The position numbers and the translations under genes are program-made. The notes under the pieces are model-generated. The model made no database searches, had not been told where the DNA came from, and saw nothing but the letters and a program-made list of their open reading frames with translations. This document shows, one piece after another, positions 10,106 through 44,216 of a stretch of 64,000 nucleotides of DNA. Location of the stretch: positions 1,502,531 to 1,566,530 of the forward strand of contig CBDBCS010000006.1 in NCBI GenBank assembly GCA_965203415.1. The letters run 5' to 3'. This DNA comes from Alphaproteobacteria bacterium. Lineage in GTDB: Bacteria > Pseudomonadota > Alphaproteobacteria > CBDBCS01. The stretch's first letter is position 1. Each line of letters begins with the position of its first letter.

Positions 10106-12467
10106 TTGACTTTGACCTGGACCGAAGGAAACCCCGAGCCTCCTGCGTCTGCGTCGTTACCGCCGTGGGTGAGTTCTCTCAACCCTCGCCAGCGTGAAGC
10201 TGTAACGCATACCGAGGGGCCCGTGCTCGTCACGGCGGGGGCGGGCACCGGCAAAACGCGCGTTCTGACGACACGTCTGGCCTGGCTTCTGCACGAAGAG
10301 AAAGCGCCTCCCTGGCGTTTATTATGCGTCACGTTCACGAATAAAGCCGCGAACGAGATGCGGTCTCGCCTGGAAAAAATGATGCCCATGGAGACCGTGC
10401 GGGATCTCTGGATGGGAACGTTTCACGCGCTCTCGATGCGGCTTCTCCGGCGTTCTCCCGAGAGCGTCGGCTTGAAACCGGATTTTGGAATCATGAGTCC
10501 CGACGACCAGCTTCGTTTAATGAAGCGTTTGGCGGGCGAGTTCCAGATTGACCCGAAACTATGGCCGCCCCGCCGCCTTTTGTCCGAAATCGAGCGTTGG
10601 AAGGATAAAGCTCTTTTTCCGGAGGACGTGACGCCTGCGGTCTTTTCTCAGAACCGTCCTCAGAATCGTCGTGTTTCCAACATGGTGGAAATCTATCGGG
10701 CGTATCAGGCCATTCTCGCAGAGATGAATTTTGTGGATTTTGGCGATCTGCTTCTGTATGCCCTCCGTCTGATTCAGAGCGACGCCGACCTGCGGCATAA
10801 ATTTTCGTATATCTTGGTGGATGAGTACCAGGATACCAATCATGCCCAGTACTTATGGCTCAAGGCTTTGGCAGAGGGTTCTGGCAATCTCTGTTGCGTC
10901 GGCGACGAGGACCAGTCTATTTACGGCTGGCGCGGGGCAGAGATTTCTAACATTCTCTCTTTTGAGAAGGATTTCCCTCGGGTCAAATATATTCCTCTGG
11001 AGGAAAATTATCGTTCGGACCAGACTATTTTGGATGCGGCCTCGGGTCTTATCACGAAAAACAAGGGGCGTCTGATAAAAAAGGAGCTTCGTTCGGGGCT
11101 TTCGAGGCGGGGTGGTGAAAAAATCAAAGTCCACGAGACACGCAGCGAAGCCGAGCAGAGCTGGAAGCTGGTGGACACTATTCTGGCTTATCACGATCGG
11201 GGAGCCGCGCTGACGTCGATGGGCATTCTCGTTCGGGCGAGTTATATGACGGACCGCATCGAGGACCGCCTTACGAAGCACAGAATTCCCTATATTGTCT
11301 ACGGCAATCCACGTTTTCTGGAGCGCGCCGAGGTTCAAACGATGTTGGCTTATCTGCGTTTGGTCCATCGCTCGTTCGATGACCCGGCATTTGAGCGTGC
11401 CGTCAATCAGCCCCCGCGCGGGATCGGGGAAGCCACAATGCGGGACTTGCAGGACCAGAAACATACCGGAGAGTCTCTTTTTGACTGTGCCCGTCGGTCT
11501 CTTTCTGTGGGTCTCGTATCAAAGCGAGCTCGGGTTGGTTTGCAGTTTTTTGTAGACCTCATTCTAGAGGCACGCACGCGTCTGGAGGCTCTGACAAAGG
11601 CGAGTGCCGGTGCGCCGCCGTCCTCGTCGCTTGCCGAGCTGGCTCGATGGATGCTGGAGGCCTCTGGCTTGGGGCCGCACTACATATTTTCAGAAGCTCC
11701 CGATGCCCCGGGCGTCTGGATAATTTGAAAGCCTTTATCACGAACCTGGCCGAAGAGCAGGATCTGGGAACGTATCTCGACCGGGTGGCCCTCATGGAGA
11801 GCGTCGCGCAAGGAGAAGACGGGGCGCAGAAAGATCACGTTGTCCTGATGACCATTCACGCAGCCAAGGGCCTGGAATTCGACAATGTCTTTCTGCCCTA
11901 TTGGACCGAGAAGCATTTCCCAATCCACGCGCGCTGGAATCGACGGACCGCGGGGAAGCTCTGGAGGAGGAACGCCGCTTGGCCTATGTGGCTCTGACGC
12001 GGGCGCGGCACCGGGTTTCTATTTTCTGGTCGAGCACGCTCTGGACTTTTCAGAATTTTCCAGAGGAAGCCTTCCCCTCACGCTTTATCGGCAACATTCC
12101 GACACATTTGCGGCTTCATTCTCAGACCTATGCTTCTGTGGGCGCGTCCGGTGAGCGGCCCGGCAATTCTTTCCGGAATGATGCCGGCGGCAGACAAACG
12201 GCCGTATCGGCTAGCTCGATGGAAAAAAGACAGCTCCCCGTTTGGAAGCCCGGGGTGCGGGTGTTGTCAGGCCAATTCGGAGAGGGAACCGTTCTGGGCT
12301 ATTCCGCCTTGGGGCAGTGCCGTGTCCGCTTCGAGGATGGTCAGGCTCGGAACATTTTGGCCTCCTATTTACGGGAGGCGCCCGCCGAGAGTCGTGCCCC
12401 CGGTGCCGGTGGGCTTGATGGCCCCGGCGGTCCCGGTGCCAGCGGTAGGGCCCAAGCTAAAGGCTAA
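10106..12467 (+). pseudogene. uvrD: UvrD/Rep-family ATP-dependent DNA helicase interrupted by two -1 frameshifts
   Basis: The Walker A region LVTAGAGTGKTRVLTTRLAWLL and the motifs VDEYQDTN and GDEDQSIYGWRGA are in the first frame. The helicase continuation RLDNLKAFI...TIHAAKGLEFDNVFLP is in a second frame. FPNPRALES...LEEERRLAYVALTRA is in a third frame. The shifts sit in a CCCCGGG run near 11703-11709 and in a TTTCCC run near 11915-11921. Confidence 0.8.
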
Positions 12468-15229: not shown

Positions 15230-16500
15230 CGGGCCCGCCGGGGGCCGCCGGGGGTTGTTTCTCCGCTGCCCTCGCCGCCGATTCTTTCCAACGCAGGTAT
15301 GGGTTGGGGCCCGCCGGGATCCTGTCGGAGGCCGTCTCCCTGCGGGAAAACGAACGGTTTTCAGATAAAATCTGGACCGCCGGGGGTCGCCGGGAGCCGT
15401 CCCCCTGCACCCTATCGATCGATGCCGACGACGGAACCGCCAGTATGGGTTGGAGCACACCGGGGCAAGTCTTCCCGCAATGAAGGCGGCCGAACCCTCG
15501 GCTATGATGGGGCCGCCGGGGCCCACCGGGGGCAAGCGGCACCATGACCGCCAGAGCCTCCACGGGTGTCGTTCGGGCCCGCCGGGAGCCGTCTCCTCGC
15601 TGCCCTCGCCGCCGATTCTTTCCAACGCAGGTATGGGTTGGGGCCCGCCGGGAGCCTGTCGGAGGCCTGTCGGAGGCCGTCTCCCTGCGGAAAAACGAAC
15701 GATTTTCAGATAAAATCTGGGCCGCCGGGGCCCGCCGGGGGCCATCTCCCTGCACACTATCGATCGATGCCGACGACGGAACCGCCAGTATGGGTTGGAG
15801 CTCACCGGGGCAAGTCTTCCCGCAATGAAGGCGGCCGAACCCTCGGCTATGATGGGGCCGCCGGGGCCCACCGGGGGCTGTTTCCCCGCCAGGCTCGTCA
15901 GCGACGGGCGTGCCAGCGAGTATGGGTTGGGGCCCGCCGGGAGCCATCTCCCTGCACACTATCGATCGATGCCGACGACGGAACCGCCAGTATGGGTTGG
16001 GGCTCGCCGGGGCAGGTCTTCCCGCAATGAAGGCGGCCGAACCCTCGGCTATGATGGGGCCGCCGGGGCCCACCGGGGGCCGTTTCCCCGCCAGGCTCGT
16101 CAGCGACGGGCGTGCCAGCGAGTATGGGTTGGGGCTCACCGGGAGCCGTCTCCCTGCATCCTATCGATCAATGCCGACGACGGAACCGCCAGTATGGGTT
16201 GGGGCCACCGGGGCAAGTCTTCCCGCAATGAAGGCGGCCGAACCCTCGGCTATGATGGGGCCGCCGGGGCCCGCCGGGGGCCGTCTCCCTGCACCCTATC
16301 GATCGATGCCGACGACGGAACCACCAGTATGGGTTGGAGGCCGCCGGGGCAAGTCTTCCCGCAATGAAGGCGGCCGAACCCTCAGCTATGATGAGGCCGC
16401 CGGGGCCGCCGGGGCCGTCTCCCCGCAGCGGCTTGACGGAACACACCTTCAATAGCGTATGGGTTGGAGGCCGCCGGGGCAAGTCTTCCCGCGTCCGTCG
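15230..16500. repeat. mosaic modular tandem repeat built on ten copies of GTATGGGTTGG
   Basis: The 11-mer starts at 15297, 15443, 15631, 15788, 15920, 15990, 16122, 16192, 16327 and 16457. Four module bodies recur 2 to 6 times at near identity. All six frames are open, but the copy spacings are not consistently multiples of 3. Confidence 0.9.
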
Positions 16501-16711
16501 TCGTCTTTGTGCGCTCTCATCGTGTATGACAGGCAATCGTGTGAAAATGGTGTGAGACTTGGAGGGAGGGCTCTGCGGGCCGGCCTTGAAAGCCATCGAG
16601 GCATGTGCTAGCGAGGGGAACGGTGCGGCCTCGTTTCTTTTCAGAGAGAATCTCGAAGAGAACGAGCGGAAGACAGCCCAAGCACGACTTGAATTTCTGG
16701 AGGAGGAGCTT

Positions 16712-17878
16712 ATGCGTCTTTTTGAAAGATATTTCGGCAGCTATCTCAGCTATCCGGGATATTCCGGCGGATATTCCGGCAAACATCCCGGCAAACATCC
16801 CGGCAGGGTTCTCGGTTTGGGCTCCCGGCTTTTTTTCCGGCTTTTTTTTCCGCTTTTCGTTCTGCTAGGAGGCCCGCTGGCAGGCGGCGCGTTTGTGTTT
16901 CCGTCGCAGATTTGGGCTCAGGAATCGCAGGAGTCGCAAGAATCTTCCGGCGAGCTCCCGGTTCTTCGTGTTTACACGTACGACTCTTTCAGTTCCGAGT
17001 GGGGCCCAGGGCCGCGCCTCCAGGAGCTCTTTGAGGCAACATGCGCTTGTCAGCTCGTTTTTGTGCCGCACACCGATGCGGTGACTTTGCTCACGCGCCT
17101 CCAATTTGAGGGCTCCCGAGCCAAAGCGGACGTTATTTTGGGACTCGACACGACTCTGATGCACGAGGCGCAGTCTCATGCTCAGCCGCACGGTTTAGAA
17201 CTCCCCGAGACCCTCCGAGGCGTCGAGGCATGGGACAATGAATTCTTTGTGCCTTTCGATTGGGGTTTTTTTGCGTTTGTCTATGATGCGCGGCGGTATG
17301 ACGGGCCGCCTTTGGACTCTTTTGAGGCTTTGCGGGCGGCCCCGGTTCGCCTTTTGATCCAGGACCCTCGAAGTGCCAGCCCGGGCTTGGGTTTGGTTTT
17401 GTGGATACAACATCTGTACGGCTCGGAAGCCGCCGAGGTCTGGGGCGACCTGAACCCGAAAATCGTCACCGTGACCGCCGACTGGAGTACCTCGTATCAG
17501 CTTTTTCTGCAGGGCGAGGCCGATATGGTGCTGTCCTACGCGACATCGCCTTTCTACCACCGCCTCGTGGAGGGCGAGGACCATATCCGCGCCTTCTATT
17601 TCCAGGAGGGCCACTATCAACAGACAGAGGTCGCCGCTCTTGCCGCCCAGGCCTCGCAGCCGGACCTGGCGCGCCGTTTTTTGTCCTTCTTGCTCTCCCC
17701 TGAGGCCCAGAGCGTACTCCCGACGCACCAGTGGATGTACCCCGTTCATCCGGACGTCGCTCTGCCAGAGGGCTTCGACGAGCCGCCGACAGACATACGC
17801 GCCCTGACCCACACCCCCGAGGAAGTCGCCCGCCATCGACGCACCTGGACGCAGGCGTGGCTTGACGCTCGTTTTTGA
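16712..17878 (+). CDS. thiB: thiamine ABC transporter periplasmic binding protein
   Basis: LRVYTYDSFSSEWGPGP...ADVILGLDTTLM is typical of TbpA/ThiB. The ATG at 16712 follows GGAGGAGGAG. It is followed by thiP and thiQ. Confidence 0.85.
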   Translation: MRLFERYFGSYLSYPGYSGGYSGKHPGKHPGRVLGLGSRLFFRLFFPLFVLLGGPLAGGAFVFPSQIWAQESQESQESSGELPVLRVYTYDSFSSEWGPGPRLQELFEATCACQLVFVPHTDAVTLLTRLQFEGSRAKADVILGLDTTLMHEAQSHAQPHGLELPETLRGVEAWDNEFFVPFDWGFFAFVYDARRYDGPPLDSFEALRAAPVRLLIQDPRSASPGLGLVLWIQHLYGSEAAEVWGDLNPKIVTVTADWSTSYQLFLQGEADMVLSYATSPFYHRLVEGEDHIRAFYFQEGHYQQTEVAALAAQASQPDLARRFLSFLLSPEAQSVLPTHQWMYPVHPDVALPEGFDEPPTDIRALTHTPEEVARHRRTWTQAWLDARF

Positions 17879-18567
17879 AGATACGCTTGCCGGCAGTGCA
17901 GGCGGGGAAGGGGCGAGGGTGAAGCCGCGGTCCAAGAGAACCCTCGACGAGTCTGGCTCGTGGCCTGGACTTTTCTTTTTTTGCTTGGTTCGCCTGCGGG
18001 CGGCTTGATTTTTCAGAGGCGAGGGGACGGACACAGCGCGCCGCCGCCGGGCCCTGCCATGACCCATCCATCATGACGCCATGGCTTTTTAAGGGGTCTT
18101 TGACGGGAATGTTCTGGTTTTTGGGGGGTCTATGGCAGAGACCGTCTCATCGTCTGTTTCAAGAGTCTGTTTTCATGCTTTGGTCTCTTCGTGGCATGCT
18201 TGTTCGCAGGAACAAAGAAAGCCCGACACGGGCCCATGGTTTTACATGGTTTTACATGGCTTTACAAAACAGAGCTTCATGCCACTTTCACAAACGGCAA
18301 GGCCGTCGTCGGCAGACGGCCTGCTCGTTCAAACGACTGGTCTGCGCTTCAAGAGACGGTGGCGAGGGTGTTTCTCCGCATCTTTTCACACCGGTTTTCA
18401 CACCAGGGGGCCCCCCGGACTGTGAGCTGCACGCCGGGAAGGATCCGGCATGAGTCGAGTTGGGGGTCCGCAGAGGCTTGGCCGAGCCGCATGCCCTTTG
18501 TTTTAGTTCTTTTCTCGCTCGTCTGGCGGGTCTTCTTGTTTTTCACACCCCCTTCAGAGTGCGTTCC

Positions 18568-20295
18568 GTGGAACGCCTAGATTCGGCTTCGCCCCGGGTT
18601 GTGTCTTGGGTGGTGCCCGGGCTGTCGCCTTGGTGGGGCAGGCTCGGTCTTGGGTTGGCGTTATGGCTTCCGCTCGGCGGTCTGGGCGGCCTGTTGAGCT
18701 GGCTCTTATTCGGGCCCGCCGGCGGCGTGCCGGAGCCCCCCGGCAGTGGGCTCTTTCCAGCCCTCTTCCAGGCGTCGAGTTGGGTCTGGAGGCTCTTGCA
18801 ATTCACCATGCTCGAGTCTTTTTTGTCGGCTTTCTTCAGCCTTCTGATCGGTTTTGTGTGGGCTCGTGGGCTTGTGCGGCGTTCTTTTCCCCGCTTTCTG
18901 CACCCGGTTCCCTATATGCTGGCGAGTTTCGCCATGCCGCAGATTGTGGTTCTCTTTGCTTTCGTCCAGTTTTGGGGGAGCCAGGGTGTCGTGGAGGCCC
19001 TCTTTCAGCCCTATCAGACCGGTCTCTTGGAGCGAGGCTGGTATTACGGCCTGGAAGGCGTGGTACTCGTCCATATTTTTTACAACGCCCCCTTCTTTGC
19101 CCTGGTTTTTTATCAGGTTCTGAGCTCTATCCCGGCCGAGCGTCTCCAATTGGCCCTTCATCTGGGTTTTCGAGACGTCGATTATCTGAGACTTCTGGAC
19201 CTCCCGGTTGTTTTCAAAACGGTCCTGCCTGCGTTCGGGCTTGTTTTTTTTCTGTGTTTCACCAGCTTTACCCCCGTTCTCGTTCTGGGAGGCGGCCCGC
19301 CTAATCAAACGCTGGAGGTCGCTCTTTACCAGGCGATGCGTCTGGACTACGCCCCGACCACGGCCATGAGCCTTGCGCTTTTGCAAGGTGTTCTCCTGGT
19401 TCCGATGCTGTTTTTTCTGGTGCACACGTCTCGGACGCGTCTGACCTTGGCGCATGCCCCGCCGCGTCGAGCCGTGAAACACCGTGTCGATTCGAAAAAC
19501 ACGACGGCTCTTCTGGCGGACGCCTTCGGTTTTTTGTTGTTTTTGGTTTTGGTTCTCTTTCCTCTTGCGGGTCTAGTCGCAACGGGGTTGCCTTTAGTGC
19601 CTCTGTGGTTCGAATCGGGGAGCGTGCCGTGGTTTGCACCGTGGCTGGCTTTGGGGAGGTCGCTCTTGATTGGGCTGGGCAGTGGCGTGCTTGCCGTTTT
19701 CGGCGCGCTCTGTCTCGTGCAAGCCGGGCGTTCCGCCGGGCGTTCCGCCGGGCGTTCCACCGGACGTTCCGAGACCCGCTGGGTTTTTGCCGCCTTGAGC
19801 CCTTTTCTCATGCCTGTCGGCATGGCGGGGCTCGTTTTTTTCTTGACCCTGAGTTCCTTCACAGACCCAGGGCCGTGGCTTATCCCGGTGGCTATTGCGA
19901 TCAATGGGACGCATCTGATTCCTCTGGCGTTTTTGTTGGTCCGTCCGCTCGTACGGGAACTGGAGCAGCGTTATAAGGCTCAACTCATTGTGTTAAAGGT
20001 TTCGGGTCTGTCAGGGTTCTGGCGCGTAGACTGGCCGAGTCTGGCTCCGGGCTTGCGGACGATTTTCGTCTTATGCGTGTGTCTGGGCTTCGGCGAGATG
20101 ACCGTCGCTGTGTTTTTTGCTTCGCCGGAAGGGCCGAGTTTACCGCTTTTACTTCTCCGAGCGATGGGGCATTACCGTTTTGACTATGCGGCTAGTCTGG
20201 CTTTTCTGCTTTTGGTGAGTTTTCTCGTTTTGGCTCATTTTCCCTTTTCGTTATGCGCCCGGCTCGCGAGAAACTTGAGCAGAATCCAGCTATAA
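18568..20295 (+). CDS. thiP: thiamine ABC transporter permease (duplicated permease domains)
   Basis: This is a long polytopic protein with two permease halves, sitting between thiB and thiQ. The ORF is open from 18460. The GTG at 18568 precedes the first TM segment, but the start is uncertain. Confidence 0.8.
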   Translation: MERLDSASPRVVSWVVPGLSPWWGRLGLGLALWLPLGGLGGLLSWLLFGPAGGVPEPPGSGLFPALFQASSWVWRLLQFTMLESFLSAFFSLLIGFVWARGLVRRSFPRFLHPVPYMLASFAMPQIVVLFAFVQFWGSQGVVEALFQPYQTGLLERGWYYGLEGVVLVHIFYNAPFFALVFYQVLSSIPAERLQLALHLGFRDVDYLRLLDLPVVFKTVLPAFGLVFFLCFTSFTPVLVLGGGPPNQTLEVALYQAMRLDYAPTTAMSLALLQGVLLVPMLFFLVHTSRTRLTLAHAPPRRAVKHRVDSKNTTALLADAFGFLLFLVLVLFPLAGLVATGLPLVPLWFESGSVPWFAPWLALGRSLLIGLGSGVLAVFGALCLVQAGRSAGRSAGRSTGRSETRWVFAALSPFLMPVGMAGLVFFLTLSSFTDPGPWLIPVAIAINGTHLIPLAFLLVRPLVRELEQRYKAQLIVLKVSGLSGFWRVDWPSLAPGLRTIFVLCVCLGFGEMTVAVFFASPEGPSLPLLLLRAMGHYRFDYAASLAFLLLVSFLVLAHFPFSLCARLARNLSRIQL

Positions 20296-20303
20296 CAAGA
20301 GGC

Positions 20304-20969
20304 ATGTTACATTGGACGCGTCTCGTCTTGCTTCGAGGGTCTCGCGAGATAACCGTGGCTCCCATGCGTTTCCCGCCTCAGATGGTGGCCGTTCTGGGGC
20401 CCTCGGGGAGCGGCAAAACGAGTTTTTTTCACGCGCTGAGCGGGCTCCTTCCCTTTCACGAGGGCCACGTTTTCCTGGACGACCGGGAGCTCACGCGCCT
20501 GCCGGGCGGGGCCCGGCCTGTGAGTCTCATGTTTCAGAATTTGGACTTGTTCGAGCATTTGCGCGTTCTAGACAATGTGGCTTTGGGTCTCGGGCCGCGG
20601 CACTTGAGACGCCATCGAAAGCAGGCTTTGTCGTTTCTGTCTCGGGTGGCTCTGGCAGAGAAGGCCATGGCGTTTCCGGGAGACCTCTCGGGCGGGGAGC
20701 AACGGCGGGTGGCCTTGGCCCGAGTCCTTTTAAGAGCTTCTCTATGCCCGATTGTGCTCCTGGATGAGCCTTTCGCGTCCGTGGACCCCCGCCGCCGTCA
20801 AGAGCTTGTCCTCTGGCTTCAGGGGCAACAGCGCGCGCTGGGTCTGTATATTTTCATTGCGACGCATCTCCAGAAAGAGGCCGACCAATGGGCGCAACGC
20901 GTTTTGCTCTTTCAGGATGGGTGTTTGAACGAAAGCCTCCACGAGACACCGAGACACGATGGGCGGTGA
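20304..20969 (+). CDS. thiQ: thiamine ABC transporter ATP-binding protein
   Basis: It has Walker A GPSGSGKTS, the ABC signature LSGGEQRRVALAR and Walker B IVLLDEP. I chose the ATG at 20304, just after the thiP stop. Confidence 0.85.
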   Translation: MLHWTRLVLLRGSREITVAPMRFPPQMVAVLGPSGSGKTSFFHALSGLLPFHEGHVFLDDRELTRLPGGARPVSLMFQNLDLFEHLRVLDNVALGLGPRHLRRHRKQALSFLSRVALAEKAMAFPGDLSGGEQRRVALARVLLRASLCPIVLLDEPFASVDPRRRQELVLWLQGQQRALGLYIFIATHLQKEADQWAQRVLLFQDGCLNESLHETPRHDGR

Positions 20970-20972
20970 ATC

Positions 20973-21240
20973 CCAGGATAAACCGGTGGATAAGCCGGGG
21001 ATAAGCCGGTGGATAAACCGGTCGTGGGCCATGCAAAAAGACGTGGACAAGTCTAAACGATATGTGGATAAGCCTACAGTAAACTCGAACGTGTAGTAGA
21101 CTGCCGAGATATTTTCCGCTCGTGTTTTCCGGGCTGAAGGTCCCTCGGGCGTCTCCGGCGCGGCGGCGGACTTGGCGCTGCCGGCAATTTTGAAGCATAC
21201 GAATATAGATACGAAATAGATTTGGCGTGTTTGTGGATAG
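20973..21240. promoter_or_regulatory. cluster of DnaA-box-like 9-mers plus tandem AT-rich 12-mers
   Basis: A perfect TGTGGATAA (reverse complement of TTATCCACA) is at 21063-21071. GGTGGATAA occurs at 20985-20993 and 21008-21016, CGTGGACAA at 21042-21050 and TGTGGATAG at 21232-21240, all in the same orientation. ACGAATATAGAT and ACGAAATAGAT lie in tandem at 21199-21221 within an AT-rich patch. Confidence 0.45.
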
Positions 21241-21862
21241 ACTTTATTCCGAGAAACCCTCTTCCTCTGATTCCTCTGACGGCGTCAATCCCATCGACCA
21301 GCTGGAGGCCATGTTCGTCCGTTTCGACTGGCCCTATGACCGCGTGGCCGAGAACCGATTGGCCGTAGGCACTCAGGGCAAATGGTGTCTCTATCATCTT
21401 CTTTTCGAGTGGCAGCCGGACCTGGAGGGCTTTCAGGTCGTGAGCCGCTTCGATTTCACCATGCGTGAGGGACTGGCTGACAAACTGGACCGCCTTCTCA
21501 ATTTGATTAACGGCAAGACATGGCTTGGTCATTTTGAACGGTGTCCAGATGACGCAACGCTGCTGTATCGGGTTGGTCTGCCTACGCGCGGTTTGGGCGG
21601 CATGCCTCAGGCGATTCTGCGCGACGTCATCGATACCGTCCTCTCGTCCTGTGAGTGCTATTATCCTGCTTTCCAATATGTGATTTGGGCTCGGCGCTCG
21701 CCCGAAGCGGCTTTGGCCCAGGCTCTCCTGGACAATAGCAGGAACGAGGCCGCCGCCGCCGCCGCCGCCGCCGCACCCGGGGATGATGCCGAACGCGACC
21801 GCGACGACGCTCCGGATGAGCCTGCTGGTGGGCCTGCGGGCGGGCCGGAAAAGAGCCCCTGA
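21227..21862 (+). CDS. YbjN domain-containing protein with poly-Ala/acidic tail
   Basis: PIDQLEAMFVRFDWPYDRV...YHLLFEWQPDLEGFQVVSRFDF fits the YbjN-type fold family. Its position upstream of proC is common in alphaproteobacteria. The start is a GTG and is uncertain. Confidence 0.65.
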   Translation: MFVDRLYSEKPSSSDSSDGVNPIDQLEAMFVRFDWPYDRVAENRLAVGTQGKWCLYHLLFEWQPDLEGFQVVSRFDFTMREGLADKLDRLLNLINGKTWLGHFERCPDDATLLYRVGLPTRGLGGMPQAILRDVIDTVLSSCECYYPAFQYVIWARRSPEAALAQALLDNSRNEAAAAAAAAAPGDDAERDRDDAPDEPAGGPAGGPEKSP

Positions 21863-21864
21863 CG

Positions 21865-23058
21865 GTGATACAGACGGTGGCCCAGAAAAAAGACGCACCG
21901 CCGCCTGAAAAGCCGCCCAGCGGGCTCGCCGAGCGAGCCCCGGCTGGAGCGGCACATAAAACCGGGCATAAAACCGCGCATAAAACCGGGACGCGGCCCT
22001 CGCCCAAGCCGTCGCCGCCCCCCGGGGCGGCTCCTGGGTCGCCCGGCTCGCCCCGCCGGCGTTCGGTGCCCCGAGCTGGCCTCGGGAAGGCCGCCCCAGA
22101 GGCGGGCCTCCTGATGATAGGGTGCGGCACGATGGGTCAGGCTCTGCTGGACCGCTGGCTTATTGCCGGGCGTATCCAGGCGAAGTTTCCGGCGACCATT
22201 GTAGACCCCCAGCGTTTTTCGACTTTGGCGGCTCCTAGAAAAGCCGTGCGTGCCTTTGCCGCTCTAGAGGACATTCCCGCCCGGCGAAAATTTGACACGG
22301 TTCTCCTAGCTGTCAAACCGTCGGATTATGAAAAAACATGTCTGGAACTGCGAGCCTGGCTCGTCGAGCGGTACGCGCGTTTCAAGACTGCCCCGCCCTC
22401 GCTGTTGATCTCCGTGATGGCCGGCATCGGCACGAACCTCCTCCAGGCCGTTTTCGAGGCGCCGGTTTCGCTTCCCGAGGCGGCTTCGGGCTCGGGTGCC
22501 ACAGACCAGAGTTCAGCCTCGGGCCTAGCCCCGGGAGTATCCCCCGGATCGTCTTCGTCCTTTTTTACGGGTCTGTCGATTGTTCGAGCCATGCCGAATT
22601 TACCGGTGGCCGTTGGGCATGGTCTGACGTTTTTGTGTCCCTCGGGGCGTTGTCGCAAAGGAGCCCTCCGTCGAGCGACGACTCTCTTTAAGGCGACGGG
22701 TCAGACCATTCTGTTGGAACAGGAAAACGCGATGAACGCGGCAACGGCTATTTCGGGTTCGGGGCCGGCCTATATCTGTTTATTCATCGAATCGATGGTG
22801 GAAGCCAGTTGCTATCTGGGTCTGCCCGAGGACATGGCTTCGCAGGTCGTGCCTCAGGTTTTAGAGGGTGCCCTTCGGCTGCTATCGGCTTCGGGCCAGA
22901 CGCCGCGGCAGTTGCGGGAGGCGGTCACCTCCCCCGAGGGTTCGACCGAGGCGGCTCTGGCCGTTCTGATGGACGAGCGTCACGGCATGCCGGCTCTCGT
23001 TCGGCGTGCCGTCATTCTTGCCCGCGACCGAGGCCGCGAATTGGGAATCCGGCATTGA
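21865..23058 (+). CDS. proC: pyrroline-5-carboxylate reductase (N-terminal low-complexity extension or later start)
   Basis: It has the dinucleotide fold MIGCGTMGQALL and the C-terminal signature AISGSGPAYICLFIESM...REAVTSPEGSTEAAL. The first internal ATG is at 22114, and the true start may lie between 21865 and 22114. Confidence 0.85.
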   Translation: MIQTVAQKKDAPPPEKPPSGLAERAPAGAAHKTGHKTAHKTGTRPSPKPSPPPGAAPGSPGSPRRRSVPRAGLGKAAPEAGLLMIGCGTMGQALLDRWLIAGRIQAKFPATIVDPQRFSTLAAPRKAVRAFAALEDIPARRKFDTVLLAVKPSDYEKTCLELRAWLVERYARFKTAPPSLLISVMAGIGTNLLQAVFEAPVSLPEAASGSGATDQSSASGLAPGVSPGSSSSFFTGLSIVRAMPNLPVAVGHGLTFLCPSGRCRKGALRRATTLFKATGQTILLEQENAMNAATAISGSGPAYICLFIESMVEASCYLGLPEDMASQVVPQVLEGALRLLSASGQTPRQLREAVTSPEGSTEAALAVLMDERHGMPALVRRAVILARDRGRELGIRH

Positions 23059-23114
23059 GAGACGCCGCCGCGCGTGGGGCGGCCCTGCCCCTTCGAGCCC
23101 AATTTCTGGAAGCG

Positions 23115-23624
23115 ATGTCTCTGGCGGTGCATAGTGTGTATGTCCTCACCAGTGGCGGCGAGGGCTTGACGTTATCGGCTTTCAGCTCTTTAGCGGTAGA
23201 CGGGCCTCAACCGACGATTCTGGCGTGTGTCCATCGCCAGAGTCCCGCCCAGCGGGTGGCTCGGTTACGTTGTTCTTTCGCGGTCAATTTGCTCGGGGCG
23301 ACGCAGCGGACGGTCGCAGAAAAATTTGCAGGGTGGGGCGGCGTGCGGTCGGGGCAGGAGAAATTCGCCGCCGCGCGCTGGTCCCATTTTGAGAGCGGCA
23401 ATGTCTATATGCCAGAGGCCCTCATGGCTCTGGATTGTCAGTTGAGAACCTATCACCGCCTGGATACGCATATGGTTCTCATCGGGTCGGTGCGCGAGGT
23501 CTATTTGTCCGGGGCTGCCACCGACGCTGCGCCATCTTCCTCCCGGGGGTCAGCTCGGGGGTCGGGCGAGCCTCTCACCTATGCCCGGCGCCAGTTTCAA
23601 GCCCCGGCTCCATCCTCGGAATAG
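23115..23624 (+). CDS. flavin reductase family protein
   Basis: FLEAMSLAVHSVYVLTSGGEG...LSAFSSLAVDGPQPTILACV is the flavin reductase-like split-barrel pattern. An alternative TTG at 23055 overlaps the proC stop as TTGA. Confidence 0.7.
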   Translation: MSLAVHSVYVLTSGGEGLTLSAFSSLAVDGPQPTILACVHRQSPAQRVARLRCSFAVNLLGATQRTVAEKFAGWGGVRSGQEKFAAARWSHFESGNVYMPEALMALDCQLRTYHRLDTHMVLIGSVREVYLSGAATDAAPSSSRGSARGSGEPLTYARRQFQAPAPSSE

Positions 23625-23644
23625 GGCCCCGGAATAGGACTCGG

Positions 23645-26362
23645 TCAAGCTCCCGCCCGTCGGGTTCTCGGAGCCGTCTTCCGCTTGGTTCCGGCTTTTG
23701 CCGTGGTTTTTTTCCGGGCTGTTTTCCGGGCCGAGTCCGGGTCTGCGCCGTTCGAGATGTGCTTCTCCAGGAGTCGACCGAGCTCTTCATCAGAGAACGC
23801 CTCGTCCTGCATCGTTCGAGGCAGGGCCGCTCGATAGTTTTGCCAAAAGAGCGTCCGCCCGAAACGCGAGACAAGCAGATAAACGGGCTGTCCGCGCCAA
23901 GTTCCAATCTGGCGTCCGCGTTTTACCGCGCGTTGTTCGCTTTCGTGGATTAGAGCGACGGCGTGGTTTTCACCGATCGTGAAGGCCTCTTCGTGGTCTT
24001 TCAGCCTCACATTGGAGCCCCGATACTGGAGATAGGGCCCGTAGGGCCCGATTTTAGAAAAAATCGGCTCGCCGCTTTCGGGATGGAGGGCAACTTGGCG
24101 TGGCAGACTCAGACATTTGAGAGCCAGTTCCAAAGTCGCCTGGTCGGGCCGATAAGACTTAGGCAAGCTGGTGCGGCGCGCCACTTTCGCGTCCTCGCCC
24201 TGTTGAAAATAGAACCCATAGGGGCCTTTCCGAAAAGAAATCGGTTCTCCCGAGTCATTTGTGCCCAGCAGACGCGGCTGCCCTGGCCCCTCGGGAGGCG
24301 TCTTGGGGGTGTCGCCCGCTTGGGGCTCCCCGAGTTTCGACTCTATTTTCGACGCTATTCCCGTCGCCGAGGTCGAAGCGGCCGAAGCGGCCGAAGAGTC
24401 TGCCGTCTCGTCGGTTCCAATCGAGTGGATATATTTGCAATCAGGGTAATTCGAACAGCCGAAGAAAAGAGACCGAGGGAAAATTTTCAGCTGCAAAGAG
24501 CCCTCCCCGCACTGCCGGCACTTCATGAGAGCCGCAAGATCGCCTCCCGGCGGACATTTGAGAAAATAGCCTCCTAAAGCCTCGTGCAGATGGTGCTGGA
24601 CGGTTCGATTATCGATCTCTTGAGCGGTCTCGATTTTAGAGGCAAAATCCTTCCAGAAGGCCTCCAGGACTTCGCGCCATAGGTGCGTCCCATTGGCGAC
24701 ACTATCGAGTTCCTCTTCCAGGTTCGAGGTAAATTCGTTTTTGACGTAAGCGGCGAACCACTCTTTGAGATAGGCCGAGACCAACATCCCGGTCTCAGAG
24801 GGGACCAAGCGTTGCTTGTGCTGGACGACATAATTGCGTTGCTGCAGAACGCGGAGAATAGAGGCATAGGTCGAAGGACGCCCAATGCCCTGTTCTTCCA
24901 GTTCTCGGACCAAGCCGGCTTCGTTGAAGCGCGGCGGCGGTTTCGTGAAATGCTGCGTTTTGGAAAACCGGACTTTGAAGAGCTCTTGCCCGACCTCCAG
25001 AGGCGGAAGGAGCGCCGTGGGTTTTTCCGTCTCTTCGGTGGTGGGGGTCGGTTTATAGATTTTCAGGAAACCCTCGAAGGTGCAGACGAGGCCCGAGGCG
25101 CGCAGCTCCGTCCCTTCGTGGCCGGTCTGAATGACAGCCGTCGTTTGTTCAAAAGCCGCCGGGCGCATGCCGCTCGCCAGGGCGCGCCGCCAGACCAGTT
25201 CGTAAAGCTCCAGAGCCTCTTCAGGCAGAGTCCGTCCCGCTGTGGCTTTGAGCTCCTGGGGGGTTCGAGAAAAATCCGTAGGCCGGATTGCCTCGTGGGC
25301 TTCCTGGGCGTTTCGGACTTTGGATTTATAGACGGTGGGCTTGTCGGGCAGATAGGTTTTTCCCAGTTCCTGGGCGATATAGGCTCTTTGTTGTTGGATA
25401 GCCTGCTGGGCGAGGGCAACCGAATCCGTCCGATGGTAGGTAATCAGCCCGACGTGCCCCTGTCCCGCGAGCGTTGCGCCCTCATAGAGGCGTTGGGCTA
25501 GCTCCATGGTTTTCGTGACGCTGAAACGCAGCCGGCGCGAGGCCTCCTGCTGGAGGGTGGAGGTGATAAAAGGCGGAAACGGGCGGCGTAGAACCTGCTT
25601 GCTGTCGCTTTTTGCGACCCTGAAAGGCGTTTTCTCGGCGCGTTCGAGGGCGTGCGCCGCCGCCTCTTCGTTCTGGAGTCCCATTTTGGGGAGGACGCGC
25701 CCCTCTAGTCGGTAGAGACGGGCCTCGAAGGTTGGGGCTTCTTCCGTTTGTTGGGTCTTGAGGTGGCCTTGGACGGTCCAATACTCTTGAGGCTCGAATC
25801 GATTGATTTCCAGTTCTCGGTCGCAGACAATGCGCAGAGCCACCGATTGAACGCGCCCCGCCGAGCGCGCCCCGCTCAATTTTCGCCACAAAACAGGCGA
25901 GAGCTCAAACCCTACCAGATAATCCAGCGCGCGCCGAGCCAGATAGGCTTCGATGAGAGCCAGATTCAGGTCCCGCGGGTTCTGGACGGCTTGAGTGACG
26001 GCTCCTTTTGTGATTTCGTGGAAAACAACGCGTCGAGGTGGCGTTTCAAGACGATTTTTGTCCTCTTTGGTTAAGAGCTGGCACAAATGCCAAGCGATGG
26101 CCTCGCCCTCGCGGTCTGGGTCGGTCGCCAGCAAAAGAGCCTGATTGCGTCGCAGAGCTTCTCGAATCGCCTTCAGATACCCCGCGCCTCTGGGGGAGAG
26201 CGTCCAGTGCATGCGGAAGCCGTGTTCGGGCTCGACCATGCCGTTTTTGCTCGCCAGGTCTCGCAGATGGCCGTAGGTCGCGAGGACCTCATAGTCGGAA
26301 CCCAGATAGTTACGAACGGTTTTGGCTTTGGAAGGCGACTCTACAACCAGGAGCGTGGACAT
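23645..26362 (-). CDS. topA: DNA topoisomerase I
   Basis: The Toprim start is MSTLLVVESPSKAKTV...YGHLRDL. The active-site region is GLITYHRTDS. The C-terminal zinc-ribbon-like segment is CRQCGEGSLQLK...GCSNYPDC, followed by a basic tail. Confidence 0.95.
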   Translation of the reverse strand: MSTLLVVESPSKAKTVRNYLGSDYEVLATYGHLRDLASKNGMVEPEHGFRMHWTLSPRGAGYLKAIREALRRNQALLLATDPDREGEAIAWHLCQLLTKEDKNRLETPPRRVVFHEITKGAVTQAVQNPRDLNLALIEAYLARRALDYLVGFELSPVLWRKLSGARSAGRVQSVALRIVCDRELEINRFEPQEYWTVQGHLKTQQTEEAPTFEARLYRLEGRVLPKMGLQNEEAAAHALERAEKTPFRVAKSDSKQVLRRPFPPFITSTLQQEASRRLRFSVTKTMELAQRLYEGATLAGQGHVGLITYHRTDSVALAQQAIQQQRAYIAQELGKTYLPDKPTVYKSKVRNAQEAHEAIRPTDFSRTPQELKATAGRTLPEEALELYELVWRRALASGMRPAAFEQTTAVIQTGHEGTELRASGLVCTFEGFLKIYKPTPTTEETEKPTALLPPLEVGQELFKVRFSKTQHFTKPPPRFNEAGLVRELEEQGIGRPSTYASILRVLQQRNYVVQHKQRLVPSETGMLVSAYLKEWFAAYVKNEFTSNLEEELDSVANGTHLWREVLEAFWKDFASKIETAQEIDNRTVQHHLHEALGGYFLKCPPGGDLAALMKCRQCGEGSLQLKIFPRSLFFGCSNYPDCKYIHSIGTDETADSSAASAASTSATGIASKIESKLGEPQAGDTPKTPPEGPGQPRLLGTNDSGEPISFRKGPYGFYFQQGEDAKVARRTSLPKSYRPDQATLELALKCLSLPRQVALHPESGEPIFSKIGPYGPYLQYRGSNVRLKDHEEAFTIGENHAVALIHESEQRAVKRGRQIGTWRGQPVYLLVSRFGRTLFWQNYRAALPRTMQDEAFSDEELGRLLEKHISNGADPDSARKTARKKTTAKAGTKRKTAPRTRRAGA

Positions 26363-26943
26363 AAAACAAGGCGAACCATAAGACGATGCAGGAAACAGGG
26401 TGGGAAGCGATTCTGAGCGAATGAAGCAACAATACAGCCGAAAGGGAAAATAAAGTCAAAAAATAAACAGACGAGGCCGTCCGGACGACTCTGTTCAGAC
26501 GGGTCTGTTCGGGTTTTCTCCTTGCATGGCCGGGTGAGCGGCCCTGACTCCTGTAAGCCACGAAGGGCACCAAGAAGGACGACCGGCAGGATACGCCGCT
26601 AGCATATTCCGGGGCAAAAAACAAGCCTTCTCGCCCTTTGTCACCCTTCGGCCTCGGATTCCGCCCGGGTCATCCCCGGGTCATCCCCGGATTATTTCTG
26701 GTGTCTCTTTCAGGGAGGGGCCAGGGACATGGATAGGGAGGGCACAAAACGCAGCTGGGTTAAGGCAGCCTTGACAGCCTTCGCCACGCCTTTTCCCACG
26801 CTTTTTTATAGGCTCTCTTTCCGAGCCGGCTCAAGAGGGGGTGATTCGGAAAAGATTTTTCTCAAACCCTATTTGTGATTCGCGTTATGATAGGGGCTCA
26901 AGTGTATTTCGGACGCCGCGCACCGTGTGGCCAGAACAGAACT

Positions 26944-28110
26944 ATGAACGACAGCCCGTGTAAAACCCCAGGTAAAACCCCAGCTCAAGCCTCGCGTCAA
27001 AAACCGAGCGGCCCGAGCGGCCGGCCACGGCCAGCCCGCGCTCCGGCCCCGGACGACGGCGACGGTGCCTCGGCTCAAGAGAAGATCCGTCGCTTTGCCG
27101 CCGGCATCGGCTTGGCGGAGATGCGTGTAACTCAGCCGCATTTATCGGCATCCGTTCGGTCGAATCTCCGTCGTTTTGTCTCAGAGAAGGCCTATTTAGA
27201 CATGCACTGGATGGCCGACAAACTGGAGCGGCGTCTTTTTCCGCTCAGTCTTCTGCCGGGCACCCGCTCTGTTTTAGTTTTCGGGCTCTCGTATGCGCCG
27301 TCGGCCCCGCCGTTGCGTTTCTTGCACCGGCCGAGCCGAGGCTTAATCTCGGTCTATGCCCAAGGCAAAGATTATCATCGTCTGATGCTCAAGCGTCTCC
27401 GGCAAGTCGGTGTTTTCATCCAGTCGAACTGGCCGGCGTCAGAGCTGCGTCTTTTTGTAGACACGGCCCCCGTGGCCGAGAAGCCTCTGGCTCAGCAAGC
27501 AGGCCTAGGCTGGCAGGGGAAACACACCAATCTCGTTTCGCGCACGCACGGGAGCTGGCTTTTTCTTGGGTCGCTTTTTACGACCTTGGCTCTGCCGCCG
27601 GACCCGCCTCAGGGTCAGTTGTGCGGGTCGTGTCGTTTGTGTCTGACGGCCTGTCCGACGGCGGCTTTGGCGACGCCTTATCGCCTCAATGTCGCAGAGT
27701 GTCTCGCTTATTACACCATCGAGCACAAAGGGGCCATTCCCATGCATCTTCGACGCGCCATGAGTAATCGTGTCTTTGGGTGTGATGATTGTCTCGCGGT
27801 GTGTCCGTGGAATAAATTTGCGCAGGCGACTCGGGAGACGGACTTCAAAACGCGTTTTTCGTCGTATCATTTGCGTGATTTTTTGTCTCTGGACGAGGCG
27901 TCCTTTCGAGACGTCTTTCGTCAGACGCCGGTGCGGCGGCTCGGTCACCGGCTTTTTTTGCGCAATTGTCTCATTGCGGCGGGCAATAGCCGCGACCGAA
28001 CGCTTTTGGCTCGCCTGCGTGTTTTTGCCCGAGACCCCGACCCGTTGCTGGCCGAACACGCGACTTGGGCTGTGAGGGAGCTCGAGGAAGAGGCCTCGTC
28101 GGATGCGTAG
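26944..28110 (+). CDS. queG: tRNA epoxyqueuosine(34) reductase
   Basis: The Fe-S motifs CGSCRLCLTACPT and FGCDDCLAVCPWNKF are present, plus YTIEHKGAIP. The ATG at 26944 fits better than the GTG at 26875. Confidence 0.9.
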   Translation: MNDSPCKTPGKTPAQASRQKPSGPSGRPRPARAPAPDDGDGASAQEKIRRFAAGIGLAEMRVTQPHLSASVRSNLRRFVSEKAYLDMHWMADKLERRLFPLSLLPGTRSVLVFGLSYAPSAPPLRFLHRPSRGLISVYAQGKDYHRLMLKRLRQVGVFIQSNWPASELRLFVDTAPVAEKPLAQQAGLGWQGKHTNLVSRTHGSWLFLGSLFTTLALPPDPPQGQLCGSCRLCLTACPTAALATPYRLNVAECLAYYTIEHKGAIPMHLRRAMSNRVFGCDDCLAVCPWNKFAQATRETDFKTRFSSYHLRDFLSLDEASFRDVFRQTPVRRLGHRLFLRNCLIAAGNSRDRTLLARLRVFARDPDPLLAEHATWAVRELEEEASSDA

Positions 28111-29200
28111 CGGCGGTCCGGCTCTTGCGCCGGTCTTTTTGCTCGCCGACATTGGGGGCACGAATCTACGTCTCAGTCTTGCCGACCGTCGAGGGCTTGA
28201 CCCGGACTCGGTCTGTGCGCTGCGTGTGGCCGATTATCCGTCTTTAGAGGCGGCTCTTTTAGAGTATCTCCGGAGCCGTTCGGTTCGGGTTTGGCCGCGG
28301 CTGGCGGCTCTGGCGGTTGCGGCTCCGACCGAGGGCTGGGCTCAAAGCGGCACCGTTGCCATGACGAATCATCGATGGGTCCTCCGGCGGGACGCCCTCG
28401 AGCAGAGCCTCGGGTTTTCCGAGCTTTTGGTGGTCAATGATTTTTTTGCTCAGGCGCGGGCTTTGCCGGCTCTGCCTGTCGCCGCTTTTCGAGAAGTCCA
28501 AGCCGGGAACGCGCCAGCCATTCCCGTCACAAACGCGCCAGGACTCCTGGGGCTCCCGCGTGTGATCCTGGGGCCCGGGACAGGCTTGGGCTTGGCGACG
28601 CTGTTTCACGAACAGGCTACATGGCGCGTCTTTACAGGCGAGGGCGGGCATGCGACTCTTTCCGTGCGCGACCGTCGTGACCATGCGCTTGTGGCTTGGG
28701 CCTGGGCGCATCTGGGGGCTCGAAGAGCCGCCTGTTCGTCTTCGGATTCGCCGCCTCCGCACCTCTCGGTCGAGCGTTTTTTATCGGGCGAGGGCTTGAG
28801 ACTCTTGTGGCGTTTTCATGCGCAGTTTTCTGCTTCTGAAGACCCGGGAAAAGACCCCAGGAAAGACCCCGGGAAAACGCCCGCCGCTCGTGAGATCGCG
28901 TCCCGAGCCCAAGAGGGGGCGTGTTCTGTCTGTGTAGCGGCTCTGGATCATTTTTGCAGTCTTCTGGGGACGGCTGCTTCCAATGCGGCTCTGACGATCG
29001 GAGCCAGCGGCGGCGTCTATCTGGCTGGAGGCATCTTGCCCCAAATCGAGACTTTTTTTCTACGCAGCTCTTTCCTGGCGTCTTTCAATCAGAAAGGCCG
29101 CTTTGCGTATTGGCTCCAGAGGACGCCGGTTTATCTCGTTCTGGACGACCGAGCCTCGTTATCTGGGTGCTGGCAGATGGCTCTGGAGCAGTTCCAGTAA
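28103..29200 (+). CDS. glk: glucokinase
   Basis: LLADIGGTNLRLSL and GPGTGLG...GEGGH are glucokinase/ROK-like ATP-binding motifs. The gene overlaps the queG stop by 8 bp. Confidence 0.8.
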   Translation: MRSGGPALAPVFLLADIGGTNLRLSLADRRGLDPDSVCALRVADYPSLEAALLEYLRSRSVRVWPRLAALAVAAPTEGWAQSGTVAMTNHRWVLRRDALEQSLGFSELLVVNDFFAQARALPALPVAAFREVQAGNAPAIPVTNAPGLLGLPRVILGPGTGLGLATLFHEQATWRVFTGEGGHATLSVRDRRDHALVAWAWAHLGARRAACSSSDSPPPHLSVERFLSGEGLRLLWRFHAQFSASEDPGKDPRKDPGKTPAAREIASRAQEGACSVCVAALDHFCSLLGTAASNAALTIGASGGVYLAGGILPQIETFFLRSSFLASFNQKGRFAYWLQRTPVYLVLDDRASLSGCWQMALEQFQ

Positions 29201-31459: not shown

Positions 31460-31920
31460 TCAGAACAGTCTTGAGCTGCAGTTTAAGGCGCAATGAGACC
31501 CAGTCCATCCCAGGTCCATCCCGGTATCCATTCCCATGTCCATCTCGGTCCAGGGCTGCGGCTCTTTTCAAACATAAGCTTCTTCCCTGCAATTGTATTG
31601 CATCACCCGGGGGGAGAACCGAGCCAGAGAACGGCGTCTGACGGCCGGGCTTGGCGGCCGGGGCCATCATGCCAGATTTTAGAATTTTCTTCAAAAAAAG
31701 CAATCTTGTTTTTCCTGTTTTTCCGTTCTAGACTCTCCGTCCGGCCAGCTGTGTGTCAGCTGTGTGCCCGGCGGTATGGCCGAGGCTCTCCGCCGAGCCC
31801 CGCCGCCGCACAAAGAGAAGCGAGAAAGGCGTTTTGGGTCTCGTCTGCCCTTATGTGTGCTTCGTCTGCATGCGGCGGCAGCGGGTCGGGTCGGGTTCAG
31901 GTTCGGTACAGTCTAGGCCC

Positions 31921-31973
31921 CTCGAGGCCACGCCTCTCGAGGCTACGCCTCTCGAGGCCACGCCTCTCGAGGC
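31921..31973. repeat. 15 bp x3.5 tandem repeat CTCGAGGCCACGCCT
   Basis: Copies start at 31921, 31936, 31951 and 31966 in the intergenic region upstream of the yqeY-like gene. Confidence 0.85.
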
Positions 31974-42896: not shown

Positions 42897-43012
42897 TCAA
42901 AAAAACCTCAATCCGGCCCGGCCCGGGCAATTCCGGGAGGAGCGGCCGCCTCCCCGCCCTGGCTCCCTCCGTCAGTCCGACACGATTCGATACGATTCGA
43001 CACACTATCAAC

Positions 43013-43730
43013 ACAGACCAGGCAAGACAGGCCAGACAGGCCAGGCCAGACAGGCCAGGCCAGACAGGCCAGGCAAGACAGGCCAGGCAAGACAGGCCAG
43101 GCAAGACAGGCCAGGCAAGACAGGCAAGACAGGCCAGGCAAGACAGGCCAGGCAAGACAGGCCAGGTCAAGACAGGCCAGGTCAAGACAGGCCAGGTCAA
43201 GACAGGCCAGGTCAAGACAGGCCAGGTCAAGACAGGCCAGGTCAAGACAGCCCAGGTCAAGACAGGCCAGGTCAAGACAGCCCAGGCAAGACAGTCCAGG
43301 CAAGACAGCCCAGGTCAAGATAGCCCAGGCAAGACAGCCCAGGTCAAGACAGCCCAGGCAAGACAGGCCAGGCAAGACAGTCCAGGTCAAGACAGTCCAG
43401 GTCAAGACAGCCCAGGCAAGACAGGCCAGGCAAGACAGCCCAGGCAAGACAGCCCAGGTCAAGACAGCCCAGGCAAGACAGTCCAGGCAAGACAGCCCAG
43501 GTCAAGACAGGCCAGGCAAGACAGTCCAGGCAAGACAGCCCAGGTCAAGACAGCCCAGGCAAGACAGCCCAGGTCAAGACAGCCAGGCAAGACAGCCCAG
43601 GCAAGACAGCCCAGGCAAGACATGCCAGGCAAGACATGCCAGGCAAGACAGCCCAGGTCAAGACAGACCAGGCAAGACAGGCCAGGCAACACAGGCCAGG
43701 TCAAGACAGACCAGGTCAACACAGCCCAGC
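43013..43730. repeat. minisatellite array 1, about 49 units of GACAG[G/C/T]CCAGG(T)CAA (14 or 15 bp)
   Basis: Read directly from the sequence. Runs of the 14-mer GACAGGCCAGGCAA and the 15-mer GACAGGCCAGGTCAA are interleaved with single-base variants. Confidence 0.95.
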
Positions 43731-43772
43731 CCGAGTCGGCAGTCTGGCACAAGCGCGCTCGAAAAGCCACCC

Positions 43773-44137: not shown

Positions 44138-44216
44138 CCAAAGCCCTCCTGTCCGGGTGGTTTCTCTGTCCCCGCTTGCCAGGCCCGAGACGGCCGTGCT
44201 ATGGGTGTTGGCTCGT

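Follow-up and report, generated by a model that had tools for sequence, protein, structure and literature searches.

A conserved DnaA-box cluster upstream of ybjN–proC in a deep-branching alphaproteobacterium: a probable regulatory module outside the replication origin

DnaA is a transcription factor as well as the initiator of replication, and its alphaproteobacterial regulon is known mainly from Caulobacter. Described members of DnaA regulons include gcrA, ftsZ, podJ and mipZ in Caulobacter, nrdA, dnaA, polA and purH in Escherichia coli, and sda, ywlC and yydA in Bacillus subtilis. The E. coli loci datA and DARS2 need an IHF-binding site, and the core of DARS1 and DARS2 consists of three DnaA boxes, one of them in opposite orientation; at the E. 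coli origin, the DNA unwinding element (DUE) adjoins box R1. Here, we describe a cluster of DnaA boxes in the spacer between thiQ and ybjN (positions 20970–21226, 257 bp) in a 64 000-nucleotide stretch of contig CBDBCS010000006.1 from an alphaproteobacterium, this whole stretch being referred to below as the window. With a probability of roughly 0.6, this spacer lies outside the origin and represents an ancestral regulatory module of ybjN–proC that binds DnaA and has been enlarged by 12 bp tandem duplication. The core of the putative module is a same-orientation pair of boxes (21042–21050 and 21063–21071) two helical turns apart, with a further box (21232–21240) at the ybjN start codon.

The locus appears to belong to a familiar type of site, either a promoter under DnaA control or an accessory DnaA site; its target (ybjN–proC), its apparent conservation across Alphaproteobacteria and its local 12 bp amplification are apparently new. 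As in DnaA-regulated promoters, one to several boxes lie upstream of a gene outside oriC. The upstream motifs are of the NTCCACA type seen in Caulobacter, where a global transcription-start study reports the 7-mers CTCCACA, ATCCACA and GTCCACA as promoter DnaA motifs (PMC4287350), and the tandem doublets 2–3 bp apart recall E. coli, where chromatin immunoprecipitation sequencing places DnaA mostly at tandem boxes separated by 2 or 3 bp (PMC11317965). Orthologous upstream regions retain the boxes, and such retention was also the argument for sda, ywlC and yydA of Bacillus (PMC2533591). In contrast to the known regulon, ybjN–proC is not reported as a member in the literature that was searched, and the main boxes stand at an unusually long distance from the start codon for a DnaA-regulated promoter (−164 to −242) and have undergone a 12 bp repeat expansion. 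As an intergenic multi-box cluster away from the origin that could bind several DnaA molecules cooperatively, the spacer also resembles the six non-origin clusters of B. subtilis and datA of E. coli, from which it differs in its low index of box density and affinity (0.085, below the B. subtilis threshold of 0.3, see below), in that no IHF site was found and in having only one perfect box.

The DnaA-box cluster upstream of ybjN

All boxes of the cluster are of the TTATCCACA type on the − strand and share one orientation. The box TGTGGATAA (21063–21071) matches at 9/9 positions and is the sole perfect DnaA box in 64 kb. Two copies of GGTGGATAA (20985–20993 and 21008–21016) and one of TGTGGATAG (21232–21240) match at 8/9 positions, CGTGGACAA (21042–21050) and CGGGGATAA (20996–21004) match at 7/9 and a weak box (20973–20981) matches at 6/9. 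With respect to the GTG start codon of ybjN at 21227, the boxes lie between −242 and −164, plus one at +5, which with this start falls within codons 2–5 of the gene. Start-to-start distances between boxes are 11–12, 21 and 34 bp, a helically phased arrangement. The six boxes with at most two mismatches span 256 bp and form the densest cluster of the window. A first-pass annotation of the same DNA had listed five of them with the positions and match scores that are read directly from the sequence, and CGGGGATAA is added here as the sixth. The annotation had also pointed to two weaker GGATAA cores; both exist, at 20976–20981 and 20999–21004, the first of them one base away from its reported position (20975).

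The significance of the cluster was assessed with 400 first-order Markov simulations of the window in which same-strand boxes were counted per 300 bp stretch. The maximum number of boxes with at most one mismatch was two in the simulations, compared with four observed, or three when one 23 bp repeat unit is subtracted. The opinion of the first-pass annotation that such clustering is unlikely to arise by chance is therefore borne out, as the count exceeds all 400 simulations even with the repeat collapsed. For boxes with at most two mismatches, the observed count of six exceeds the simulated maximum of five; with the repeat collapsed the count is four, which was reached in 23 of the 400 simulations and is not unusual. 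The window as a whole contains 11 sites with at most one mismatch (5.0 ± 2.1 expected), four of which are located within the 256 bp of the cluster. The cluster is non-random, and the tandem repeat explains just part of it.

This repeat is a 12 bp tandem array, GGATAARCCGGT ×4 (20973–21022, − strand), in which the head-to-tail boxes 20985–20993, 20996–21004 and 21008–21016 and the weak box at 20973–20981 are separated by gaps of 2–3 bp. Tandem Repeats Finder (TRF) reports GGATAAACCGGT ×4.0 at 20976–21022, in keeping with the caveat of the first-pass annotation that three of the boxes belong to a fourfold 12 bp repeat of a type that this genome makes frequently, and a second array, ATACGAATATAG ×2.2, at 21197–21221. 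Tandem double boxes (gap of 2–3 bp, at most four summed mismatches) occur in the whole window solely within the 12-mer array.

Conservation with ybjN and the proposed DnaA module

The comparison with a close relative is based on one genome, the ENA metagenome locus L001, which has the same gene order and is ∼89% identical to the window at the nucleotide level overall (82–86% at third codon positions). All six boxes are present in L001 in the same order and orientation. The first-pass annotation had regarded orthologous spacers as informative for a DnaA-regulated promoter, and this reading gains support both from L001 and from the enrichment of boxes upstream of distant ybjN homologues described below. 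Block A of the spacer (21023–21105, − strand) is 91.6% identical to L001 and contains the pair CGTGGACAA (21042–21050) and TGTGGATAA (21063–21071), with both boxes in the same orientation and unchanged. The AT-rich block B (21183–21226, + strand) is 93% identical and contains TTGAAG (21190–21195), the direct repeat ACGAATATAGAT / ACGAAATAGAT (21199–21221) and the pattern ATAGAT-N5-ATAGAT. The stretch 21220–21259, which includes the TGTGGATAG box, is 97% identical, the box itself being identical. A variable GC-rich segment (21106–21182, + strand) shows 39% identity with 59 inserted bases, and other noncoding DNA (the topA–queG spacer and the middle of the thiQ–ybjN spacer) is ∼38–39% identical and rich in insertions and deletions. 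Since blocks A and B are kept and other spacer DNA is not, the box pair and block B look constrained. The 12-mer array consists of four units in the window and of five units of different make-up in L001 (0.74 identity), which indicates that it turns over quickly; it looks like a fast-evolving add-on.

Block B is the probable promoter region of ybjN, as judged from its position directly upstream of the start codon. A GC-rich hairpin (∼21158–21185) followed by CAAUUUU is located between the two blocks, and both the window and L001 fold such a hairpin before AUUUUGAAGC. It may be the terminator of thiBPQ; this assignment is tentative because the window hairpin folds no better than shuffled sequences (z = −0.43) and a terminator scan made no call. 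Block A likewise does not fold better than shuffles.

More distant relatives were collected by a metagenome scan with a YbjN alignment, which yielded 80 loci with YbjN proteins that are 29–41% identical; in 73 of them the flank was long enough for the 300 nt in front of ybjN to be scored. Boxes with at most one mismatch occur in 14 of these 73 loci (16 hits), compared with 1.6 expected and a maximum of 6 in dinucleotide-preserving shuffles, and the NTCCACA core occurs in 34 (5.4 ± 2.1 expected). The core is found in 46.6% of the ybjN-upstream regions and in 7.5% of other 300 nt windows of the same loci (10.9% of GC-matched windows), and the corresponding box rates are 19.2% and 1.9–2.4%, so that DnaA-type boxes are enriched 4–10 times upstream of ybjN. 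When the loci are grouped at 70% YbjN identity, the core is present in 8 of 17 groups.

The distant motifs adopt several arrangements. A perfect TTATCCACA is found in L115 and in L106, in the latter with two weaker tandem boxes alongside. A marine group has a convergent pair, TTATCCACT-N6-TGTGGnTAn, and another arrangement is TT(A/T/G)TCCACA with flanking GANTC sites. In a high-GC group, two cTGTGGAC(G/A)(G/A) motifs with the orientation of the window are spaced 22 bp apart at −186/−164 to −197/−175, for comparison with the block A pair of the window, which is spaced 21 bp apart at −185/−164. The gene upstream of ybjN is thiQ in the window and elsewhere encodes BMFP/UbiK, a prs-like protein or a Bug-type binding protein, as judged from C-terminal sequences. 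Because the motif stays though the upstream gene differs, it belongs to ybjN. A motif that travels with ybjN–proC across many alphaproteobacterial lineages points to a conserved, apparently unreported output of the initiator and offers a testable connection between the cell cycle and the YbjN family, a poorly understood group of proteins.

Two further elements were observed in these upstream regions. In seven marine loci (L087, L097, L101, L105, L106, L109 and L110) a conserved TTCTGGCAC(C/G)CTAAAT is located downstream of the box pair, ∼60–100 nt upstream of ybjN, and soil-type ybjN loci have another conserved sequence, GCAAATCAC(A)TCA(C)TTGAG; both are probably promoter elements. In eight loci (L153, L140, L156, L161, L149, L114, L115 and L130) several GANTC sites, the target of CcrM methylation, crowd the DnaA-type motifs upstream of ybjN, which hints at cell-cycle-dependent control. 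The window spacer has just two GANTC sites, at 20968 and 21269.

In its well-developed form, the motif agrees with the full 9 nt DnaA consensus: the window, L001, L106 and L115 have a perfect copy, and at least ten other loci match at 8/9 positions. These matches, together with the Caulobacter core and the tandem doublet geometry, make DnaA the most economical candidate for the binding protein. In the module that we propose, DnaA, probably as cooperative DnaA-ATP oligomers, would nucleate at the perfect box and its block A partner and extend over the phased weaker boxes of the head-to-tail array, with a further DnaA molecule on the +5 box of ybjN. The array itself would have formed when 12 bp tandem duplication multiplied a box-plus-flank unit, producing three or four head-to-tail boxes with 2–3 bp gaps upstream of the pair; a genome-wide mutational habit may in this way be able to make a cooperative array from a single box. 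Occupancy would track the level of DnaA (or DnaA-ATP), coupling ybjN–proC transcription to the state of replication initiation. The +5 box, by its location, points to repression and may serve as a brake; the upstream boxes, by their position in relatives, point to activation and may be activating sites or anchor DnaA cooperatively. The array would incidentally also take up some DnaA. Three parts of this model are inferences: that DnaA occupies the region, in which direction it regulates and where the promoter lies.

Several observations weigh against a DnaA-regulated ybjN–proC module. The evidence from a close relative comes from a single genome at ∼89% identity, and the 12-mer array, with its fast evolution, may have arisen neutrally as a by-product. 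The core motif is missing from about half of the distant loci, and the orientation and arrangement of the boxes vary by clade. A σ70 scan of 20800–21500 gave no site, and a by-eye search for σ32, EcfG and σ54 patterns yielded nothing convincing. The hairpin, if it is a real terminator, would place the main boxes in the 3′ region of thiBPQ, ∼100–200 bp upstream of the presumed block B promoter. A literature search for YbjN in combination with DnaA or the cell cycle found no paper that links them. Finally, the motif of the high-GC clades, CCGTCCACAG, differs from TTATCCACA at positions 1–3, and therefore another protein that recognizes TGTGGA could be the ligand.

A rival proposal is that the TGTGGA(C/T)-type motif upstream of ybjN is the operator of some other alphaproteobacterial regulator, or that the extra boxes are a functionless by-product of 12 bp duplication. 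The commonest distant form, cTGTGGACGG, shares only a 6 nt core with TTATCCACA, and some of the clade-specific pairs (TTATCCACT-N6-TGTGGnTAn) are palindromic, as would suit a dimeric repressor; against this, the full consensus is reached in the four loci named above and GTCCACA, ATCCACA and CTCCACA serve as DnaA motifs in Caulobacter promoters. A by-product would fit the abundance of tandem arrays, of which TRF finds 139 in the window compared with 9–16 in Markov-random sequence of equal composition, most commonly with periods of 12 (35 arrays) and 9 (27 arrays), as well as the lack of significance of the repeat-collapsed count at two mismatches and the separate, unexplained 11/12 nt direct repeat in block B. 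However, the cluster of boxes with at most one mismatch exceeds all simulations even with the repeat collapsed, and the boxes outside the repeat sit in the most conserved blocks. We regard both versions of this explanation as unlikely.

The spacer could alternatively control the availability or activity of DnaA, as do datA, DARS and the Bacillus clusters, by sequestering DnaA or altering its nucleotide state, in which case any effect on ybjN would be incidental. Head-to-tail boxes 2–3 bp apart fit the geometry of cooperative binding, the array is kept, though remodelled, in both the window and L001, and non-origin box clusters with such roles have been described in E. coli and B. subtilis (PMC4585315, PMC2533591). 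In the density and affinity index of Ishikawa, stable binding in B. subtilis corresponds to four successive boxes with A > 0.3 (PMC2533591); the boxes at 20985, 21008, 21063 and 21232, with a summed affinity of 7 and a mean spacing of 82 bp, give A ≃ 0.085. The region 20900–21320 contains no IHF site such as datA and DARS2 possess, and all six boxes have one orientation in the window and L001, unlike the DARS core. Moreover, no part of the spacer is less conserved than the array, and most of the distant relatives have only one or two boxes, a number more in line with regulation than with titration. Titration is compatible with the locus, yet we do not favour this role and assign it a low probability.

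A broader version of these ideas would make the ybjN-linked box module an ancient alphaproteobacterial DnaA-control locus, either a core regulon promoter or a datA/DARS-like site, that has been amplified into an array in this reduced, repeat-prone lineage. This is a speculative proposal of low probability; to our knowledge, no such DnaA-control site has been defined in Alphaproteobacteria. If true, the core-regulon version would couple proline synthesis and a member of the YbjN family to the initiation of replication, and the datA/DARS-like version would tune the availability of DnaA.

The question of a replication origin

The first-pass annotation had also offered the spacer as a candidate oriC. 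An origin here would have DnaA oligomerize across the boxes and melt the AT-rich patch (21184–21225). The spacer does share with the Cori-type oriC of Caulobacter, which is next to hemE, the combination of mixed-strength boxes and an AT-rich patch within ∼270 bp, and it holds the densest same-orientation cluster and the sole perfect box in 64 kb, with the helical phasing described above. The AT-rich patch is directly 5′ of TGTGGATAG on the same strand, comparable to the E. coli DUE beside R1, and a non-canonical origin context is conceivable in a deep-branching lineage with a rearranged 1.79 Mb genome. Unlike a Cori-type origin, however, the spacer has no hemE/duf299 neighbourhood, CtrA or IHF site, DnaA-trios or skew switch, and its AT-rich patch abuts a gene start. 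Five tests (skew, gene context, unwinding system, accessory sites and AT-rich patch) gave no result in favour of an origin, and we consider this reading very improbable.

The transcription and replication components of the nucleotide skew were separated using ∼40 genes in the window. The replication component on the + strand keeps its sign across 21 kb, within the limits of a 64 kb sequence and wide confidence intervals. To the left and right of 21 kb, the whole-gene GC skew is +0.007 and +0.009 and the AT skew is −0.096 and −0.061; at fourfold-degenerate sites the corresponding values are +0.019 and +0.009 for GC and −0.128 and −0.058 for AT. The genes that flank the spacer are co-directional. 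The first-pass annotation had proposed locating dnaA, hemE and parAB relative to the cluster; neither these genes nor gidAB, maf, coaE or dnaQ were found among the ∼45 annotated open reading frames (ORFs) of the window.

The basal unwinding rule for bacterial origins consists of a box, a spacer of at most 16 bp and at least three NAN trios (PMC8287927). A search in both geometries for boxes with at most two mismatches, spacers of 0–16 bp and at least three NAN trinucleotides found no DnaA-trio run that the window and L001 have in common; the single match is a repeat unit in the tandem array of the window that is absent from L001. A CtrA site (TTAA-N7-TTAA) was not found anywhere in the window, nor was the IHF consensus WATCAANNNNTTR with at most one mismatch in 20900–21320. 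The AT-rich patch had been described as the richest of its neighbourhood and as reminiscent of a DUE. The first part is correct, with 72% AT over 40 bp (21184–21223), and the direct repeat is present, but the patch ranks only about 12th in AT content among the 40-mers of the window, has the size of an ordinary promoter patch, is typical of the intergenic patches in this DNA and extends just to the start codon of ybjN.

Boxes linked to ybjN also occur elsewhere in Alphaproteobacteria, and the three loci that were checked (L087, L106 and L115) are clearly not origins. Their neighbourhoods are without origin genes and have the order methyltransferase–lgt–(epimerase)–BMFP–ybjN–proC, after which come genes for a sigma factor or a phasin and for a histidine kinase. 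The presence of comparable boxes with ybjN in these bacteria means that no origin is needed to explain those in the window. For annotation, the locus is a warning that a conserved and significant DnaA-box cluster with an adjoining AT-rich patch is insufficient for an origin call.

Two candidate assignments were rejected in the course of the analysis. A 353-residue ORF upstream of ybjN in L106, considered as hemE, encodes an NAD-dependent epimerase and has lgt and BMFP as neighbours. RP001/CCNA_00001 by the Caulobacter origin, considered as a YbjN protein, which would have placed ybjN upstream regions near an origin, is the product of duf299 (PMC6393856).

Gene setting and other features of the window

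The left edge of the spacer is set by the stop codon of thiQ (20967–20969). This gene (20253–20969, + strand) encodes a ThiQ-like ABC ATPase (Pfam ABC_tran) and is the last of thiB–thiP–thiQ; the best NCBIfam matches of the three transporter genes are ThiB, ThiP and ThiQ, each below the curated cutoff. The ybjN gene (21227–21862, + strand) encodes a 211-residue YbjN-domain protein (PF10722, E = 2.4 × 10−16) with homologues P0002 (84% identity) and P0003 (27% identity), and its GTG start is backed by the gene call in L001, an in-frame 3 nt indel and the alignment with P0003. It is followed after 3 nt by proC (21865–23058, + strand), which encodes pyrroline-5-carboxylate reductase (P5CR_dimer, TIGR00112), and the two genes presumably form one operon. 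Their adjacency is also found in L001 and L106 and probably in L087 and L115. The thiBPQ-like genes and ybjN–proC are all on the + strand, as the first-pass annotation had stated. Downstream of proC are a flavin reductase gene and then the convergent topA. Other genes of the window include ahcY, hflX, a split uvrD, thiolase, queG, glk, cca, dprA, trkH and cobalamin genes, as well as fliI, argB, a CcrM-like methyltransferase, cytochrome oxidase genes, pnp and pxp genes. The window derives from a 1.79 Mb contig, and the lineage is deep-branching, with the nearest TopA proteins in GTDB species genomes being 43–49% identical. An Rfam scan of 16000–27000 with E values of up to 1 matched no family, which leaves a noncoding RNA reading without support.

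The short tandem duplications found throughout the window point to an unusual genome-wide mutational process. Examples are the arrays at 19723–19771, 21262–21279, 21955–21990, 26960–26983, 28839–28877 and 31917–31973. Numerous arrays are intragenic and add repeats of 3–5 residues, and many units contain CCGG or CCNGG. Two minisatellite-like arrays of 14 bp units are located between fliI and argB, CAGGCAAGACAGGC ×49 (43028–43729) and ACCCGGCTCCATCT ×26 (43769–44138); the ORFs of at least 150 residues that cross them (42701–44008 and 42843–44036) look spurious.

The region upstream of thiB (15264–16427) is filled with nested large direct repeats with periods of 345, 202, 135 and ∼66 bp and 92–95% matches, and a 339-residue ORF in it has no family match. 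No thiamine pyrophosphate riboswitch or other Rfam family was found at E values of up to 1 in 16000–16560, upstream of the thiBPQ-like transporter. The UvrD/PcrA-type helicase is divided between two ORFs, N-terminal (10106–11728) and C-terminal (11901–12467), with ∼100 model positions absent between them, and may be a pseudogene or a repeat-interrupted gene. The proC gene and the ORF with the flavin reductase domain occupy separate overlapping frames in the window (21865–23624) and correspond to one 585-residue ORF in L001 (3450–5207), a difference that reflects a frameshift or a fusion in one of the two genomes.

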